This document shows, piece by piece, positions 3,507-52,627 of a DNA stretch of 59,181 bases. Positions within the stretch are counted from its first letter, which is position 1. The number at the start of each line of letters is the position of its first letter. Under the pieces are notes generated by a model. That model worked only from the letters and a program-made list of their open reading frames with translations. It was not told the DNA's origin and searched no databases. The translations under genes and the position numbers were made by a program. Source of the stretch: Candidatus Moraniibacteriota bacterium (GTDB lineage Bacteria > Patescibacteriota > Minisyncoccia > Moranbacterales > GCA-2747515); assembly GCA_018401135.1 (NCBI GenBank), contig JAGYLL010000001.1:1-59181 (forward strand), read 5' to 3'.

Positions 3507-4235
3507 ATGTTTTCTGTTATAGAAAAAGAAATATATGCACAGAAAGGTTCTTTGGAAAAAAGAAAAATTCTTTCTCGGTTTTTCAAAACAGGAAAAGGAG
3601 AATATGGAGAGGGAGATCAATTTCTTGGTATAGACGTTCCCCATCAAAGAAGTATCGCCAAAAGGTATTACAAACAATGTTCTCTCGAAGATATACAAAA
3701 ACTTCTTGAAAGTGTATGGCACGAATTTCGACTCACAGGACTTTTCCTTCTTGTTTATCGCTTTGACAGAGCTGATAGAGAAGAAAAGAAAAAAATATTT
3801 CATTTTTATATACAAAATATCTCTTCTATTAATAATTGGGACCTTGTTGATACTACAACCCCGCATATTGTAGGAGAGTATATGATTCTTTTTCCTCATG
3901 AGAAAAAGCGACTGTATCATTGGGCAAAATCAAAAAATGTATGGGAAAGAAGGATCTCTCTTCTTGCGACGTTTGCTTTTATCAAGAGAAATCAGTATGA
4001 AGAGATACTAAAACTTTCAGAATATTTTTTGGGAGATACGCATAATCTTATTCATAAAGCAAGTGGATGGATGCTTCGAGAGGTGGGAAAACGTGATAAA
4101 CAAGCATTGACACATTTTCTCGAAAATTTTTCTCATACAATGCCACGAACGATGCTTCGATATGCTTTGGAAAAATATTCTCCAGAAGAAAAGAAGCTCT
4201 ATATGACAAGGAAAAACATACAAAAGGAAAAATAA
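3507..4235 (+). CDS. DNA alkylation repair protein (AlkD-like HEAT-repeat family)
   Basis: 242 aa; family-typical stretches GDQFLGIDVPHQRSIAKRY, WERRISLLATFAFIKR, ASGWMLREVGKRD. Confidence 0.7.
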   Translation: MFSVIEKEIYAQKGSLEKRKILSRFFKTGKGEYGEGDQFLGIDVPHQRSIAKRYYKQCSLEDIQKLLESVWHEFRLTGLFLLVYRFDRADREEKKKIFHFYIQNISSINNWDLVDTTTPHIVGEYMILFPHEKKRLYHWAKSKNVWERRISLLATFAFIKRNQYEEILKLSEYFLGDTHNLIHKASGWMLREVGKRDKQALTHFLENFSHTMPRTMLRYALEKYSPEEKKLYMTRKNIQKEK

Positions 4236-4333
4236 AAACATAACCAAAGAAAGTTGCTACAAGGGTATTTTTCTAAAGAATGCTTATTTTAAGGTGTAAA
4301 TGAAAATGAAGAGAGGAATGTGTCGGACAGCAG

Positions 4334-4362
4334 TTGACAAAATTAGATAGATATGCTATGTT
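4334..4362 (+). promoter_or_regulatory. sigma70-like promoter
   Basis: TTGACA (4334-4339), 17-nt spacer, TATGTT (4357-4362), 30 nt upstream of ATG 4393. Confidence 0.45.
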
Positions 4363-4392
4363 TGTACGTTATCGAAATTAAATATATTCTTT

Positions 4393-5133
4393 ATGTATTA
4401 TTCTTTGTGGCTTTCACGTATTCGTCAAAATATCGTAAGTACTATTTTCGTAGCACTGTCTTTTGGTGCTATTGCTTTTTTGGGGCTTATATTTATCCCT
4501 GATGCGTATAAAGTGCGAACAGATTTCCTTATTATTCAGCAATCTGCTTCTTCGCAAGATTTCTACACCCTTTCCAAAAGCGCCGAATATTCAGGAAACG
4601 TTCTTAAAGAGGGAATCTTGAGCGATCTCTTTCTTCGAGAAGCCTCTCAAAAAGGATACTTTTCTTCACAGAATTTTTCGGGAAGTGAAAAAGATCGTCT
4701 TAAACAATGGAGGGAAACGGTTGAAGTTCGTCAAAGGACGTCAGCTGGAATCTTGGAAGTTGTTATTTCTGAAGATGATAGTAAACAAGCACTTGGTATA
4801 GCCAAAGCAATTTCTGAAGTTCTTATCGAAAAGAATACTCTTTTTCGATCAGGAAATCCTGATGATCTTTCTATACGACTTATTTCAGGACCGATTGTAG
4901 AACAAAATCCTAGTATTTCTCAATTACTCTTTGGAGTTCTCGGTGGTATGGTCTTGGGATTTTTTCTTTCTCTCTCTTGGATATGGTACAGAGAAGAATG
5001 GGATCATACGGATTATAGAGTTTTTTCTTCTGGAGGAGAAAAGAAAGAAAATTTTCAAGAAGCAAAACTCGTGTATGAAAATAGTTTGGGAGGAAACGCT
5101 CACTGGTTTGGAATGACCAATCGTTTGGAGTAG
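4393..5133 (+). CDS. Wzz-like polysaccharide chain-length determinant (two-TM, large external loop)
   Basis: 246 aa; TM helices at both ends (IVSTIFVALSFGAIAFLGLIFI ; LLFGVLGGMVLGFFLSLSWIW) around a soluble domain; other O-antigen/glycosyltransferase genes lie nearby. Confidence 0.5.
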   Translation: MYYSLWLSRIRQNIVSTIFVALSFGAIAFLGLIFIPDAYKVRTDFLIIQQSASSQDFYTLSKSAEYSGNVLKEGILSDLFLREASQKGYFSSQNFSGSEKDRLKQWRETVEVRQRTSAGILEVVISEDDSKQALGIAKAISEVLIEKNTLFRSGNPDDLSIRLISGPIVEQNPSISQLLFGVLGGMVLGFFLSLSWIWYREEWDHTDYRVFSSGGEKKENFQEAKLVYENSLGGNAHWFGMTNRLE

Positions 5134-5264
5134 TTTGTATTTTTATATACAAAAGTGTTTCCACATACGAGAGAGAATCTCTTCTCTCTCCTAGTGGGAT
5201 CGCTTAGAAAAAAAGAGATCCTCGTTATTTGAAAATTTTCAATCATCAAAAAAAGGAGAACAAG

Positions 5265-6197: not shown

Positions 6198-6940
6198 TGT
6201 TCGGGGCAGAAGATTGTTCCTAAGCATCAGATTGCTGATCGGGGGTGACTTGTTCGCTTGTTAAAAACCTCTCCACTGTCACGTCTCCGAAAAGGTTCGT
6301 GCGTGGAAGCGCGGGTGCTGACCCTCTCTCTCGGTCTGCATGCGGGAAAGAGTGGCACCGTGCTGATGAGCTCTGGCTCACTGGCACAGTCTGGATCGTC
6401 TTGCTCGCTTCTGGGCTTTGAGTTCGAAATTGAGCAGGTTCGGCAAGACCTCGTTTCGGCAAACGTAACCTGTTGCGCGTCCTGTCGGCTATACCTGGGA
6501 AGGGCATGGCGATGGGTCGGGTAACGGGGTCAAAACCCAGAATGCCACTGGCGACTCTGTTGGTTTGGGCTTGCCCAAGTCATAACGGTAAGCAGGTCGA
6601 CATCGCGATGCGCGGAAACGTAGCGGGAACGAAGTGACCACTCCCACACCTCCTCCGCCCAAAAACCGAAGAAGCTATCGCGTGCGAGGCTGTCGGTTCA
6701 GCATGGACGCAGATGGGAGAGCGTGTGAGAGCGATCACCTGTTTTAGCTGTCTCTTTCCTATTGGAAAAGGTTGGAAAGTCGGCCCGTCGATTGGCGCCA
6801 AAGGTGCTCGCTTCTCCAACGGCAGCTGTGGAAGTGGGAAATTCTTTCTGGCGCTGGTATCGAAGGTCCGGTTCTCTGGAGACTGATGCAGTCGAATCGT
6901 TGTTCCGTAGGACAGGGTTCGACTCCGGTTATTCCAAGGG

Positions 6941-7648
6941 ATGGATGGTCCAGAAAATGAAGGCGACAGGACTAGATCTGAAAATCGCACTTCAGCTCTG
7001 AACGGTTTCAAATTCCGAAAAAACTGGTGTCACGGTGCGGTTTATGCCGTGGGTGGATGTCCGCTCACTGGCAACAATGCCGTTTTTGTGGCAGGGGAAA
7101 TCAGGTCTGGAGAGGAGCGTGGTCGTAAGTTGGTCGTGGGAGCAATCCTTCGACTGGAAGTAGATCGGGTTGACTGGAATGTCAAGCCTGAATTTACTCT
7201 TGGCATTTGGAATATCTCCGATGTCCAAGATCCGGTTGGGGGTAAAATCCTTGCAGGAATCGCGACTAAGGATGATGTCTGGAGAATTGGTGCGGGCGTG
7301 CAGTTCCCTGACCCCCATTTCATCGTTGAGGTGGAGTGGAATGCAGGGTTGGGTTGGCTCCGTGCTAACTCAAGCATTGCCAAAACTGCGCTCGTCAAAG
7401 ACTCGGGATCTTCGGAAACCTATCTGGGCGTGAAAGCGAAAGCTGTTGCTCCCAAGGCCAAGAAGGCTCCCGTAACGCAAACCATCGCACAGAAGGAGAG
7501 TAAGTCTGTTTCGTCCTCGTCCTCGCCATTTGGTTGGGCTGGGGATGCACAGAAAACTTCACTTCGCTCTTCTGGTGGTGAGAAATTGGCATCAGTTTCT
7601 TCTTCGGGAGGGGTTGATAAGGCTTTCGGATTGTTTGCCGGAGGCTAA
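6941..7648 (+). CDS. hypothetical GC-rich ORF (alternating beta-strand-like pattern, Ser/Lys-rich tail); 5' end uncertain
   Basis: 235-aa ORF ending at the GC drop (stop 7646-7648). Protein-like open frames upstream (6484-6960) suggest a longer, interrupted gene. Confidence 0.35.
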   Translation: MDGPENEGDRTRSENRTSALNGFKFRKNWCHGAVYAVGGCPLTGNNAVFVAGEIRSGEERGRKLVVGAILRLEVDRVDWNVKPEFTLGIWNISDVQDPVGGKILAGIATKDDVWRIGAGVQFPDPHFIVEVEWNAGLGWLRANSSIAKTALVKDSGSSETYLGVKAKAVAPKAKKAPVTQTIAQKESKSVSSSSSPFGWAGDAQKTSLRSSGGEKLASVSSSGGVDKAFGLFAGG

Positions 7649-50502: not shown

Positions 50503-50575
50503 GGGCGCATAGCTCAGTCGGTAGAGCAGTTGCCTTTTAAGCAAACGGTCGGGGGTTCGAATCCCTCTGCGCCCA
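50503..50575 (+). tRNA. tRNA-Lys (anticodon UUU)
   Basis: hand-folded cloverleaf: acceptor gggcgca/tgcgccc, anticodon loop cuUUUaa, T-arm ggggg-ttcgaat-ccctc; CCA not encoded. Confidence 0.9.
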
Positions 50576-50621
50576 CACTATTTCCTGAAACTTCCTTGGG
50601 ATTCGAAGGGTAGTATAAAAA
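50559..50621 (+). repeat. direct repeat copy 1 (last 17 nt of tRNA-Lys + 46 nt downstream)
   Basis: 63/63 identical to 50710-50772. Confidence 0.9.
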
Positions 50622-50709: not shown

Positions 50710-50772
50710 GAATCCCTCTGCGCCCACACTATTTCCTGAAACTTCCTTGGGATTCGAAGGGTAGTATAAAAA
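50710..50772 (+). repeat. direct repeat copy 2 (tRNA-Lys 3' fragment + downstream)
   Basis: identical to 50559-50621; similarity to the tRNA T-stem (cggggg) extends a few nt further upstream. Confidence 0.9.
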
Positions 50773-51212: not shown

Positions 51213-51335
51213 ATACCTTTTTTTAAATTATAAAACGTAAATACTGCCGGCACTTTCTAGTACGCATACTTTTTGGAAAAAATTCACTTTGTTAGTAAAT
51301 CCTTGCCTATGACTTTATGAAAAAATTTTCTCTCC

Positions 51336-51364
51336 TTGCGTATTTTTATAAAATATGGTATAAA
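51336..51364 (+). promoter_or_regulatory. sigma70-like promoter of small ORF / rlmN
   Basis: TTGCGT (51336-51341), 17 nt, TATAAA (51359-51364). Confidence 0.45.
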
Positions 51365-51398
51365 GAAAGTGCTCGGAAACCGTAAAAGGAGAAGTAGC

Positions 51399-51524
51399 AT
51401 GTTATGGTTCTGCAATCCTTTCGTTTGTGGCTCCATTATGTGGTATGGAACCGCCGCATGGATGGTGAATTGCACCTTCCAATCAAGTCTTATTCTTAAT
51501 AATAAAAAGGAGAAAACGATTTGA
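51399..51524 (+). CDS. 41-aa hydrophobic Trp/Cys-rich peptide (candidate leader peptide or small membrane peptide)
   Basis: aaaggag SD 8 nt upstream of the ATG; MLWFCNPFVCGSIMWYGTAAWMVNCTFQSSLILNNKKEKTI; followed by a strong terminator. Confidence 0.45.
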   Translation: MLWFCNPFVCGSIMWYGTAAWMVNCTFQSSLILNNKKEKTI

Positions 51525-51543
51525 AGGCATTCTTTTTGTGGTC

Positions 51544-51583
51544 GCGGGTCTTTCTGAATAAGAAAGACCCGCATATTTTTTTT
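51544..51583 (+). terminator. strong Rho-independent terminator 13 nt upstream of the rlmN start
   Basis: gcgggtctttc / gaaagacccgc 11-bp perfect stem, 7-nt loop, T8 tract (51576-51583). Confidence 0.75.
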
Positions 51584-51595
51584 GGAAGGAACTTT

Positions 51596-52627
51596 ATGAA
51601 ACATCGTGTTGATCAATTTGAATTACTTTGGAAAAATGCTCCATCTTTTAGAAAAAAGCAATTTCTCGAGGCATTGTTTTCTGAAACATTTTTGGATTTT
51701 CAGTCAGTTTCTGTTTTTCCAAAAGAGAAAAGAGAGTCTCTAGCAGAAAATATACCTTGGATGATGTGGAAGAAAAAATATATATTTTCAGCTAAAGCGA
51801 AAGATACATACAAAGCACTTCTCGTTTCTCCTGATGACGGTGTCTCTATAGAGACTGTTTTGATGAAAAATGCTCGGGGTCATTGGACGGTATGTGTTTC
51901 TTCTCAAGTTGGATGTGCTATGAAATGTTCATTTTGTGCTACAGGAACGATGGGTTTTTCGAGAAATCTTTTTTGTGATGAAATTGTAGACCAGTATCGA
52001 TTTTGGAAACTTTTTTTGCGAGAAAAGAGTATCGAAGGAGAAATTACAAATATTGTGTATATGGGTATGGGAGAACCTCTCGCAAACTATGAAGAGGTGC
52101 GATCTTCCCTTCAGATGTTTCTTGAATATGCTGAGATAGGACTTACAAGAATAACAGTTTCTACGGTAGGAATGCTTCCTGCGCTCAACAGGCTTCTCGA
52201 AGATCCTCTTTGGCCATCTGTTCGTCTGGCAGTATCACTCCATAGCGCTGATGAGAAGACAAGAAAAAATCTTATGCCGACTTCGTATGATGGTTTTTTG
52301 GAAGATCTTTTTATGTGGGCAAAAAAATATTTTCTTTTGTATCCTGAACGTCGAAGACATCTTACTTTTGAGTATGTTGTGTTGGGAGGAGTCAATGACA
52401 CCAAAGAACATGCAGAAAAACTTGCTTTGTTTGCACAAAGACTCGGAAAGGTTCGTATCAATCTCATACCGTGGAATGCTACTGGAGGACATTTTCACTC
52501 AAGTGTAAATGTAGAAGCTTTTCAATCATATATAAAGAAACAAGGTATAGTCGTTACGATCCGTCGTGCTATGGGAGCTGATATCTCTGGTGCGTGTGGA
52601 CAGCTGGTGGTGGACAAAAAGAGCTAA
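51596..52627 (+). CDS. rlmN: radical SAM 23S rRNA/tRNA adenine-C2 methyltransferase (RlmN/Cfr family)
   Basis: CAMKCSFCATG radical-SAM cluster motif, C-terminal GACGQL; start MKHRVDQFELL with ggaagga SD (ORF opens at 51521). Confidence 0.88.
   Translation: MKHRVDQFELLWKNAPSFRKKQFLEALFSETFLDFQSVSVFPKEKRESLAENIPWMMWKKKYIFSAKAKDTYKALLVSPDDGVSIETVLMKNARGHWTVCVSSQVGCAMKCSFCATGTMGFSRNLFCDEIVDQYRFWKLFLREKSIEGEITNIVYMGMGEPLANYEEVRSSLQMFLEYAEIGLTRITVSTVGMLPALNRLLEDPLWPSVRLAVSLHSADEKTRKNLMPTSYDGFLEDLFMWAKKYFLLYPERRRHLTFEYVVLGGVNDTKEHAEKLALFAQRLGKVRINLIPWNATGGHFHSSVNVEAFQSYIKKQGIVVTIRRAMGADISGACGQLVVDKKS

Follow-up and report, generated by a model that had tools for sequence, protein, structure and literature searches.

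Does the short sequence immediately upstream of rlmN in an uncultured Moranbacterium act as a leader that senses the state of the ribosome and adjusts expression of the gene behind it, or is it a gene in its own right? The question is raised by a 59,181-nucleotide stretch of DNA from Candidatus Moraniibacteriota bacterium (assembly GCA_018401135.1, contig JAGYLL010000001.1, positions 1 to 59,181), the whole of which is called the window here. Its genome, of about 0.82 Mb in 64 contigs, is 97% complete, and the relatives of its RlmN are labelled Candidatus Moranbacteria or Moraniibacteriota. The initial annotation of this DNA had described, in order, a promoter, a Shine-Dalgarno (SD) sequence, a 41-residue open reading frame (ORF) and a strong terminator directly ahead of rlmN, offering either ribosome-sensing attenuation or an independent small membrane peptide as the explanation. 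The analysis presented here leads us to regard it as probable, with reservations given below, that these 263 bp form a complete stand-alone small gene whose end serves as a fixed, operon-internal attenuator before rlmN.

In the proposed mechanism, a sigma-70-type extended -10 promoter would give rise to a transcript about 210 nt long, translation of a 41-residue helical, hydrophobic peptide would begin at ATG 51399 behind a strong SD, and a 12-bp intrinsic terminator would stop most transcripts at about 51580-51583. The compact mRNA fold, with a helix joining the 5' untranslated region (UTR) and SD to the 3' UTR, may stabilise the message and damp its translation. A minority of polymerases would pass the terminator into rlmN, and the terminator would act as a fixed attenuator, giving much small-gene mRNA and little rlmN mRNA with no sensing of ribosome or drug. 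The elements are as follows.

51336 to 51364, forward strand: sigma-70-type promoter, with -35 TTGCGT at 51336-51341, a 17-nt spacer and extended -10 TGgTATAAA at 51356-51364
51379 to 51389, forward strand: 5' strand of the long-range helix, including AAAGG of the SD (RNAalifold, pair counts)
51385 to 51391, forward strand: SD sequence AAAGGAG, 7 nt 5' of ATG 51399, kept as AAAGGAG or AAGGGAG in all five lineages compared
51399 to 51524, forward strand: small protein gene, 41 codons plus TGA (51522-51524), resting on SD, frame and selection
51459 to 51481, forward strand: ORF-internal hairpin (UGGA-U-GGUG / CACC-U-UCCA) with two compensatory double changes
51532 to 51542, forward strand: 3' strand of the long-range helix, between stop codon and terminator, in a spacer otherwise poorly conserved (RNAalifold, pair counts)
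51544 to 51583, forward strand: intrinsic terminator, with a 12-bp stem, GAATA loop, AUA and U8
51584 to 52627, forward strand: rlmN, with SD GGAAGGA at 51584-51590, ATG at 51596 and 343 aa

All the elements described earlier are present, with two amendments: the hairpin comprises 12 pairs rather than 11, and the -10 is extended, since a TG at 51356-51357 is read in the sequence ahead of TATAAA at 51359-51364. Transcription is predicted to start at about 51369-51372. The small ORF, lying inside a 62-aa TTG ORF, encodes the 41-residue product MLWFCNPFVCGSIMWYGTAAWMVNCTFQSSLILNNKKEKTI. Its local GC richness, also described earlier, is confirmed as a modest rise, 0.39-0.43 versus approximately 0.30-0.35. 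A consensus pattern scan detected the terminator but missed the promoter, the -35 of which matches at only 3 of 6 positions, and returned 5 terminator-like sites in the region versus 3.4 expected; by itself, such a scan proves little about the unit.

Comparison among relatives is more informative. Five lineages were compared, namely the window and four metagenome-derived sisters (L042, L044, L086 and L088), whose contigs, originating from SRR9030900, SRR8327731, GCA_010014565.1 and GCA_036681025.1, were reached through closer RlmN sequences in a protein collection. RlmN identity to the window is 96% in L042 and 82% in L044, with L086 and L088 sharing the 90% cluster of L044. The four sisters keep the -35 (TTGCGT or TTGCAT across the five), an invariant TATGGTATAAA block, the SD, the ORF and the hairpin, with 12-14 nt to the rlmN ATG, and the stop-to-hairpin stretch and the promoter spacer vary freely. 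Because five lineages keep the -35, this block, the SD, the reading frame and the hairpin, the unit is more than a chance arrangement.

The five peptides are 40-41 aa long, the frame is preserved, and all length changes are insertions or deletions of 3 nt. Nei-Gojobori (NG86) ratios of nonsynonymous to synonymous divergence (dN/dS) range from 0.10 to 0.34 in all ten pairs, at dS of 0.25-1.1, compared with 0.4-2.9 for the other two frames under the same calculation, and variable columns are distributed 10/7/17 over codon positions 1/2/3, displaying a third-position excess. Low dN/dS in this frame only, combined with 3-nt indels, shows at the level of sequence comparison that the small ORF is translated and that its amino-acid sequence is under purifying selection. 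Annotation has overlooked it: on the sister contigs with gene calls shown, the ORF is uncalled, except in L088, where it is represented by an over-extended 80-aa ORF. Divergence of the two genes is discordant, as window and L042 differ by a dS of 0.24 and dN of 0.02 in rlmN and by a dS of 1.1 and dN of 0.17 in the small gene (L042 2807-2929), with the order of divergence reversed between window and L044. Recombination with a breakpoint near the terminator would be the simplest explanation, and this is what the distances suggest.

Outside these five lineages, a homologue of 40 aa, MDTYYWYWNPTIITSLMFYTTMSFVANMVVHTPSLINKTY, is encoded by the other species of the genus (G001). It begins at a GTG behind an SD, is followed by its own terminator of similar sequence, and has rlmN 1.15 kb downstream in the same orientation. 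In a search with a three-peptide profile this ORF reached E = 0.002 per genome before joining the profile, and the likeness is confined to the protein level, the DNA being unlike. Apart from the small gene and rlmN, the window and G001 have no neighbours in common. Between these two genes in G001, on the minus strand of the G001 contig L022 (2651-3478), lies a 275-aa gene of the orotidine monophosphate (OMP) decarboxylase family (PF00215, 35.5 bits) with its own terminator; no counterpart of it is found in the window's genome, and by parsimony with the L046 group described next it is probably an insertion in G001.

In the L046 group, with RlmN at 65%, a 36-aa hydrophobic ORF opens with W-x-x-[NSH]-P-x-[VI] as in the window family and is a probable homologue. 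A TTGACT-17-TATAAT promoter precedes it, and behind it come an 11-codon ORF and then a terminator abutting rlmN. This second ORF (L046 2925-2960, MISQIKVLVLF, SD GGAGG) ends in a TAA that abuts a 13-bp terminator stem, itself ending 10 nt before rlmN, and together the two resemble a classical attenuator more closely than does the unit in the window. Variants of the L046 lineage (L100, L101) are too similar for a conservation or coding comparison. The RlmN tree places L046 beside G001 as its sister (93/98) and gathers the window clade in a starred group, the bearers of the unit forming two well-supported groups.

The search for the leader ORF ahead of rlmN in relatives, proposed in the initial annotation, gives a mixed result: the unit adjoins rlmN in the four sisters and, with a probable homologue, in L046, is detached in G001, and is absent before rlmN in 22 lineages of the order (20 other relatives plus L091 and L092). 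Among 60 GTDB relatives searched, with RlmN identities of 35-62%, DNA matches were limited to low-complexity stretches resembling promoters, one of them a look-alike promoter in G020, another genus of the same family. A search of 300 genomes of the order brought up no credible small-protein homologue. A profile search of 1.84 billion protein representatives yielded one spurious match, a repeat protein, while a word-based search of a 5.8-billion-protein collection, Pfam and NCBIfam gave no match to the peptide. An RlmN-based search for related loci in metagenome and genome collections returned nothing, an exact 18-mer scan of metagenome contigs returned 7 unrelated chance matches only, and a terminator-pattern scan of genome contigs returned none. 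As judged from these searches, the small-gene family is shown to be confined to one genus-level clade of uncultured Moranbacteria and absent from protein databases.

The transcript also has a recurrent predicted structure. RNAalifold with pair counting over the five sequences gives a fold with 97.9% paired cells and two-sided changes at 4 pairs. The ORF-internal hairpin has U-A replaced by C-G and G-C by A-U when the window is compared with its four sisters, the window lineage having changed six bases there, all stem-compatible (GGUG/CACC versus GGCA/UGCU). The long-range helix has 94% of its cells paired, with the column pair 48-207 being C-G in two lineages and U-A in two. It is present in the single-sequence minimum free energy (MFE) structures of all four sisters and not in that of the window, where the SD finds its partner in the UCCUUU of codons 7-8. 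Controls with a slid alignment contain 0-1 pairs changed on both sides, except for the +3 slide, which also contains 4, and the observed pairing or covariation score is equalled or exceeded in 1 of 500 shuffles. An mRNA fold including the 5' UTR/SD-to-3' UTR helix appears conserved, with compensatory changes in this helix, in the ORF-internal hairpin and in the terminator.

Such a fold brings up the reading in which the transcript acts as a non-coding small RNA and the ORF is incidental. The fold is stable even without the terminator (z = -2.6), helices carry compensatory changes, and the unit has its own promoter and terminator. Moreover, Rfam models of signal recognition particle (SRP) RNA (RF00169) and 6S RNA (RF00013) have no match at E <= 10 across the window's genome, and some RNA genes are therefore unplaced; these two RNAs are either very divergent or in unassembled parts, and the SRP helix-8 motif is not seen in the small-gene sequence by reading. 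The substitution pattern runs the other way, with dN/dS low in the coding frame only, indels restricted to 3 nt, and SD and start codon conserved, and the G001 homologue resembles the window's gene in protein but not in DNA. Rfam 15 contains no match to 51214-51600, even at E <= 1 or at gathering thresholds. A purely RNA-level function is consequently judged very unlikely, whereas a transcript that acts as RNA besides encoding the protein is conceivable.

The encoded product is aromatic-rich and hydrophobic, with a basic C-terminal tail (KKEKTI), and the window copy contains 3 Trp and 3 Cys. AlphaFold2, supplied with a six-sequence alignment, models one helix spanning residues 7-40 with a mean predicted local distance difference test score of 74.6, rising to 83-86 in the middle, and on the Wimley-White octanol scale the best 19-mer has a dG of -7 to -11 kcal/mol. 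The most likely product is a small membrane-associated helical protein, an assignment that is likely but not certain. To this extent the initial annotation's independent small membrane peptide is upheld, by frame-specific selection, the predicted helix, a conserved promoter and terminator of its own, and a position apart from rlmN in G001. Known small membrane proteins of bacteria, 30-50 aa long, include AcrZ, KdpF, CydX and MgtS (PMC10730256). The window's peptide resembles them in size, single predicted helix, basic cytoplasmic tail, omission from annotation and narrow distribution, whereas it lacks sequence similarity to any of them and no partner complex is encoded nearby.

The Trp and Cys content of the window copy, together with a peptide gene placed directly 5' of a radical-SAM gene and divided from it by a leaky terminator, recalls a precursor of a ribosomally synthesized and post-translationally modified peptide (RiPP) or a bacteriocin, modified by the adjacent enzyme or exported as an antimicrobial. 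A small peptide gene, a leaky terminator and a radical-SAM gene in succession is a layout common in RiPP clusters. Here, however, the enzyme is the genome's only member of the RlmN/Cfr family and is orthologous to RlmN across the order. Cysteines are non-essential, because the G001 and L046 peptides have none. No leader or cleavage motif is present in the peptide, and no transporter, protease or immunity gene lies nearby. This origin is considered extremely improbable.

Peptide and fold together invite comparison with type I toxin modules, in which a membrane-damaging peptide is encoded by an mRNA silenced through an SD-hiding 5'-3' helix and held in check by an antisense or trans-acting RNA antitoxin. 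In the mRNAs of hok/sok and of Helicobacter aapA/IsoA, a 5'-3' long-distance interaction hides the SD (PMC6733600, PMC5416894). The small gene shares several of these traits: at 40-41 aa its product lies within the size (<60 aa) and hydrophobicity range of type I toxins, with a predicted helix, the octanol dG given above and a charged tail, and its mRNA is compact (approximately 200 nt), structured and closed by a strong terminator. The predicted 5' UTR/SD-to-3' UTR helix shows some covariation, and the SD has two possible pairing partners, a local anti-SD (UCCUUU, codons 7-8) and a second anti-SD at the 3' end, immediately ahead of the terminator; hok and aapA mRNAs are described with such an arrangement (PMC6733600). 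Unlike those systems, the locus yielded no antitoxin RNA and no antisense promoter shared by the five lineages, a weak TTGATC-16-TATTTT occurring in three of them and not in the window; a trans-encoded antitoxin RNA is conceivable. The terminator is one-directional, with none on the minus strand. The gene is furthermore single-copy, vertically inherited, syntenic and off mobile elements, in a genome of the Candidate Phyla Radiation (CPR); its dN/dS is housekeeping-like, and the long-range helix does not form in the window's MFE. The terms 'Patescibacteria' and 'phyla' were not found in the T1TAdb paper. A toxin function is judged rather unlikely.

The hairpin GCGGGTCTTTCT-GAATA-AGAAAGACCCGC at 51544-51572 comprises 12 perfect pairs, 7 of them G-C, and is followed by T8 at 51576-51583, thereby providing the GC-rich stem-loop and succeeding U-tract of an intrinsic terminator. 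It has a dG of -21.2 kcal/mol and, within the full transcript, pairs with a probability of 0.998 (at least 0.99 overall). The stem is kept in all five lineages, with a compensatory G-C to A-U change at the base (foot pair variants G-C, A-U and G-U), and the minus strand lacks a T-run. In relatives the U-tract (AAAUUCUUUU) is broken by C in four lineages and preceded by AUA or AAA; the interrupted tract suggests, and fits, incomplete termination.

Under regulated leader-peptide attenuation, translation of the ORF or stalling within it would decide whether the terminator forms, coupling RlmN to the state of the ribosome. Attenuators of this kind are represented by the ermC/ermK and cat/cmlA leaders and by the trp and pyrBI attenuators. 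The locus has the same outward layout, a translated upstream ORF with SD, a terminator and then a gene acting on the ribosome; rlmN lacks a recognisable promoter of its own, with its SD right behind the U-tract, and ORF, terminator and adjacency are conserved in five lineages. In L046 the 11-codon second ORF, which has an SD, runs right up to the base of the terminator stem, and in nascent RNA the 5' end of the transcript can pair with the 5' arm of the terminator, a balance that an SD-bound ribosome could in principle tip.

Several features speak against this reading. A terminating ribosome is out of reach of the stem, because the stop codon lies 19 nt upstream of position 51544 (17-19 nt in relatives, 17 in L044), and the position of the ribosome does not overlap the putative switch. 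In a nascent RNA that stops at the loop, only the 5' end of the transcript competes for this arm of the terminator (the 5' one), and its pairing is worth 3.3-7.1 kcal/mol versus 15.6-17.3 kcal/mol for the terminator, in two registers that differ by lineage. No antiterminator of comparable strength, exclusive with the terminator, is therefore available, and the modelling of alternative folds that the initial annotation had proposed returned none. Selection extends over all 40 aa of the peptide, which has the look of a helical membrane peptide rather than of a short stalling motif. In G001 a different gene follows the unit, so that linkage to rlmN is broken, and beyond the genus-level clade there is none. 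A literature search found no description of an rlmN leader attenuator. With the stop codon too distant, the competing pairing weak and linkage broken in G001, a regulated ribosome-sensing switch at rlmN, as the initial annotation had put forward, is not supported, and we consider this reading unlikely.

The start of rlmN itself required correction. Its SD begins directly after the U-tract, the ATG lies 12 nt beyond the tract, and the MKHRV start is conserved in relatives. NCBI annotation (P0121) instead gives a 368-aa RlmN from TTG 51521 (SD AAGGAG), reading through the terminator hairpin. This extension is rejected, as stop codons follow after 6-12 codons in L042, L044, L086 and L088. A conserved second upstream ORF from the same TTG is likewise rejected, the four sisters having 6-12 unrelated codons and then a stop, conserved in neither length nor sequence. 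On this comparative evidence the true start is ATG 51596, and the public start is corrected accordingly. The enzyme has 254 bits to the RlmN model TIGR00048 (cut-off 290) and 218-224 bits to Cfr models (cut-offs 468-550), all below the cut-offs; sub-cut-off family scores are common for divergent CPR proteins. A CxxxCxxC motif and a C-terminal GACGQL are visible in the sequence. The phylogenetic placement raised in the initial annotation thus falls, by score, on the side of RlmN, which appears a better match than Cfr.

A pattern scan detects no promoter match between 51400 and 51596, in agreement with the earlier statement that rlmN has no separate promoter and needs read-through. Real promoters in relatives are near consensus, as exemplified by TTGACA-17-TAGAAT in L092 and TTGACC-17-TATGCT in L024. 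Because rlmN has no recognisable promoter of its own, read-through is the likely route, and we infer that rlmN is most likely transcribed from the small-gene promoter. Co-transcription draws support from L042, in which the small gene and rlmN stay together between two insertion sequence (IS) copies; promoter, small gene and rlmN are kept as a block there because the copies sit on either side. One IS end lies 5 nt upstream of the -35, leaving the promoter intact. The L042 contig contains three copies of one IS with an rve-family transposase (1609-2738, 4087-5216 and 6615-7032), and the two direct copies flanking the block, the second 3' of rlmN, give it a composite-transposon-like appearance.

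A fixed attenuator of the kind proposed has precedent. Operon-internal intrinsic terminators set expression ratios in E. coli rplL-rpoB and rpsU-dnaG-rpoD. The present locus shares with them a strong promoter-proximal gene, a hairpin with U-tract, and a distal gene that has its own SD, lacks a promoter and would depend on read-through. It differs in that the proximal gene is a 41-codon orphan, the distal ATG is so close behind the U-tract, and the read-through is predicted.

Several observations weigh against this favoured interpretation of a stand-alone gene with a fixed terminator. Promoter, termination point and read-through are all predictions from the DNA. The covariation behind the fold comes from five related sequences, and the structure was predicted from the same five, making those numbers weak. 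The best Kyte-Doolittle 19-mer of the peptide is only about 1.0, below the classical transmembrane threshold. A weak -10-like hexamer in the terminator tail, TATTTT (TAAATT in relatives), could provide a feeble rlmN promoter. Finally, two lineages with a small ORF and terminator abutting rlmN could mean a functional tie. A more novel reading is a dual-purpose leader, a translated and structured mRNA resembling those of type I toxins, in which the 5' UTR would pair either with the 3' spacer or with the terminator 5' arm, reporting ribosome loading, so that read-through into rlmN would follow translational capacity; we hold this to be quite improbable. If true, ultra-small CPR bacteria would possess a ribosome-sensing attenuator whose construction departs from the erm, trp and pyrBI types.

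As it stands, the locus comprises an ordinary orphan small gene and an operon-internal terminator. The stand-alone gene adds a new, unannotated small-protein family to a CPR genome, clade-restricted and of a generally known kind. The arrangement suggests that, in these promoter-poor genomes, a housekeeping rRNA/tRNA methylase may owe its expression entirely to transcription leaking past the terminator of a tiny upstream gene. Were the leakage regulated, it would be the first described control element for rlmN.

Further observations concern the surroundings of the unit. A 110-aa antisense ORF (51284-51616, minus strand), overlapping the promoter, the small gene and the rlmN start, is dismissed as spurious. 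The look-alike promoter of G020 (cTTGCGTATTTgTATAAAttATtGTATAAAGAAA), at about 1495-1555 on the minus strand of contig L002, is near-identical to that of the window and precedes an unrelated 255-aa membrane-protein gene, suggesting a shared strong-promoter type. Upstream, a perfect palindrome, TGCCGGCA, at 51245-51252 lies within a block of approximately 25 nt (..TGCCGGCAyTTTyTAGTACGCA; about 51240-51270), also conserved in L044, L086 and L088. This block occupies the divergent intergenic region on the side of a 130-aa secreted-protein gene and is a possible operator.

Farther upstream in the window, 50559-50621 and 50710-50772 form an exact repeat consisting of the last 17 nt of tRNA-Lys(UUU) and approximately 46 nt downstream of it, the two copies being separated by about 88 nt of GC-rich sequence. 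The repeat looks like an attachment-site (att)-type scar of integration at a tRNA 3' end.

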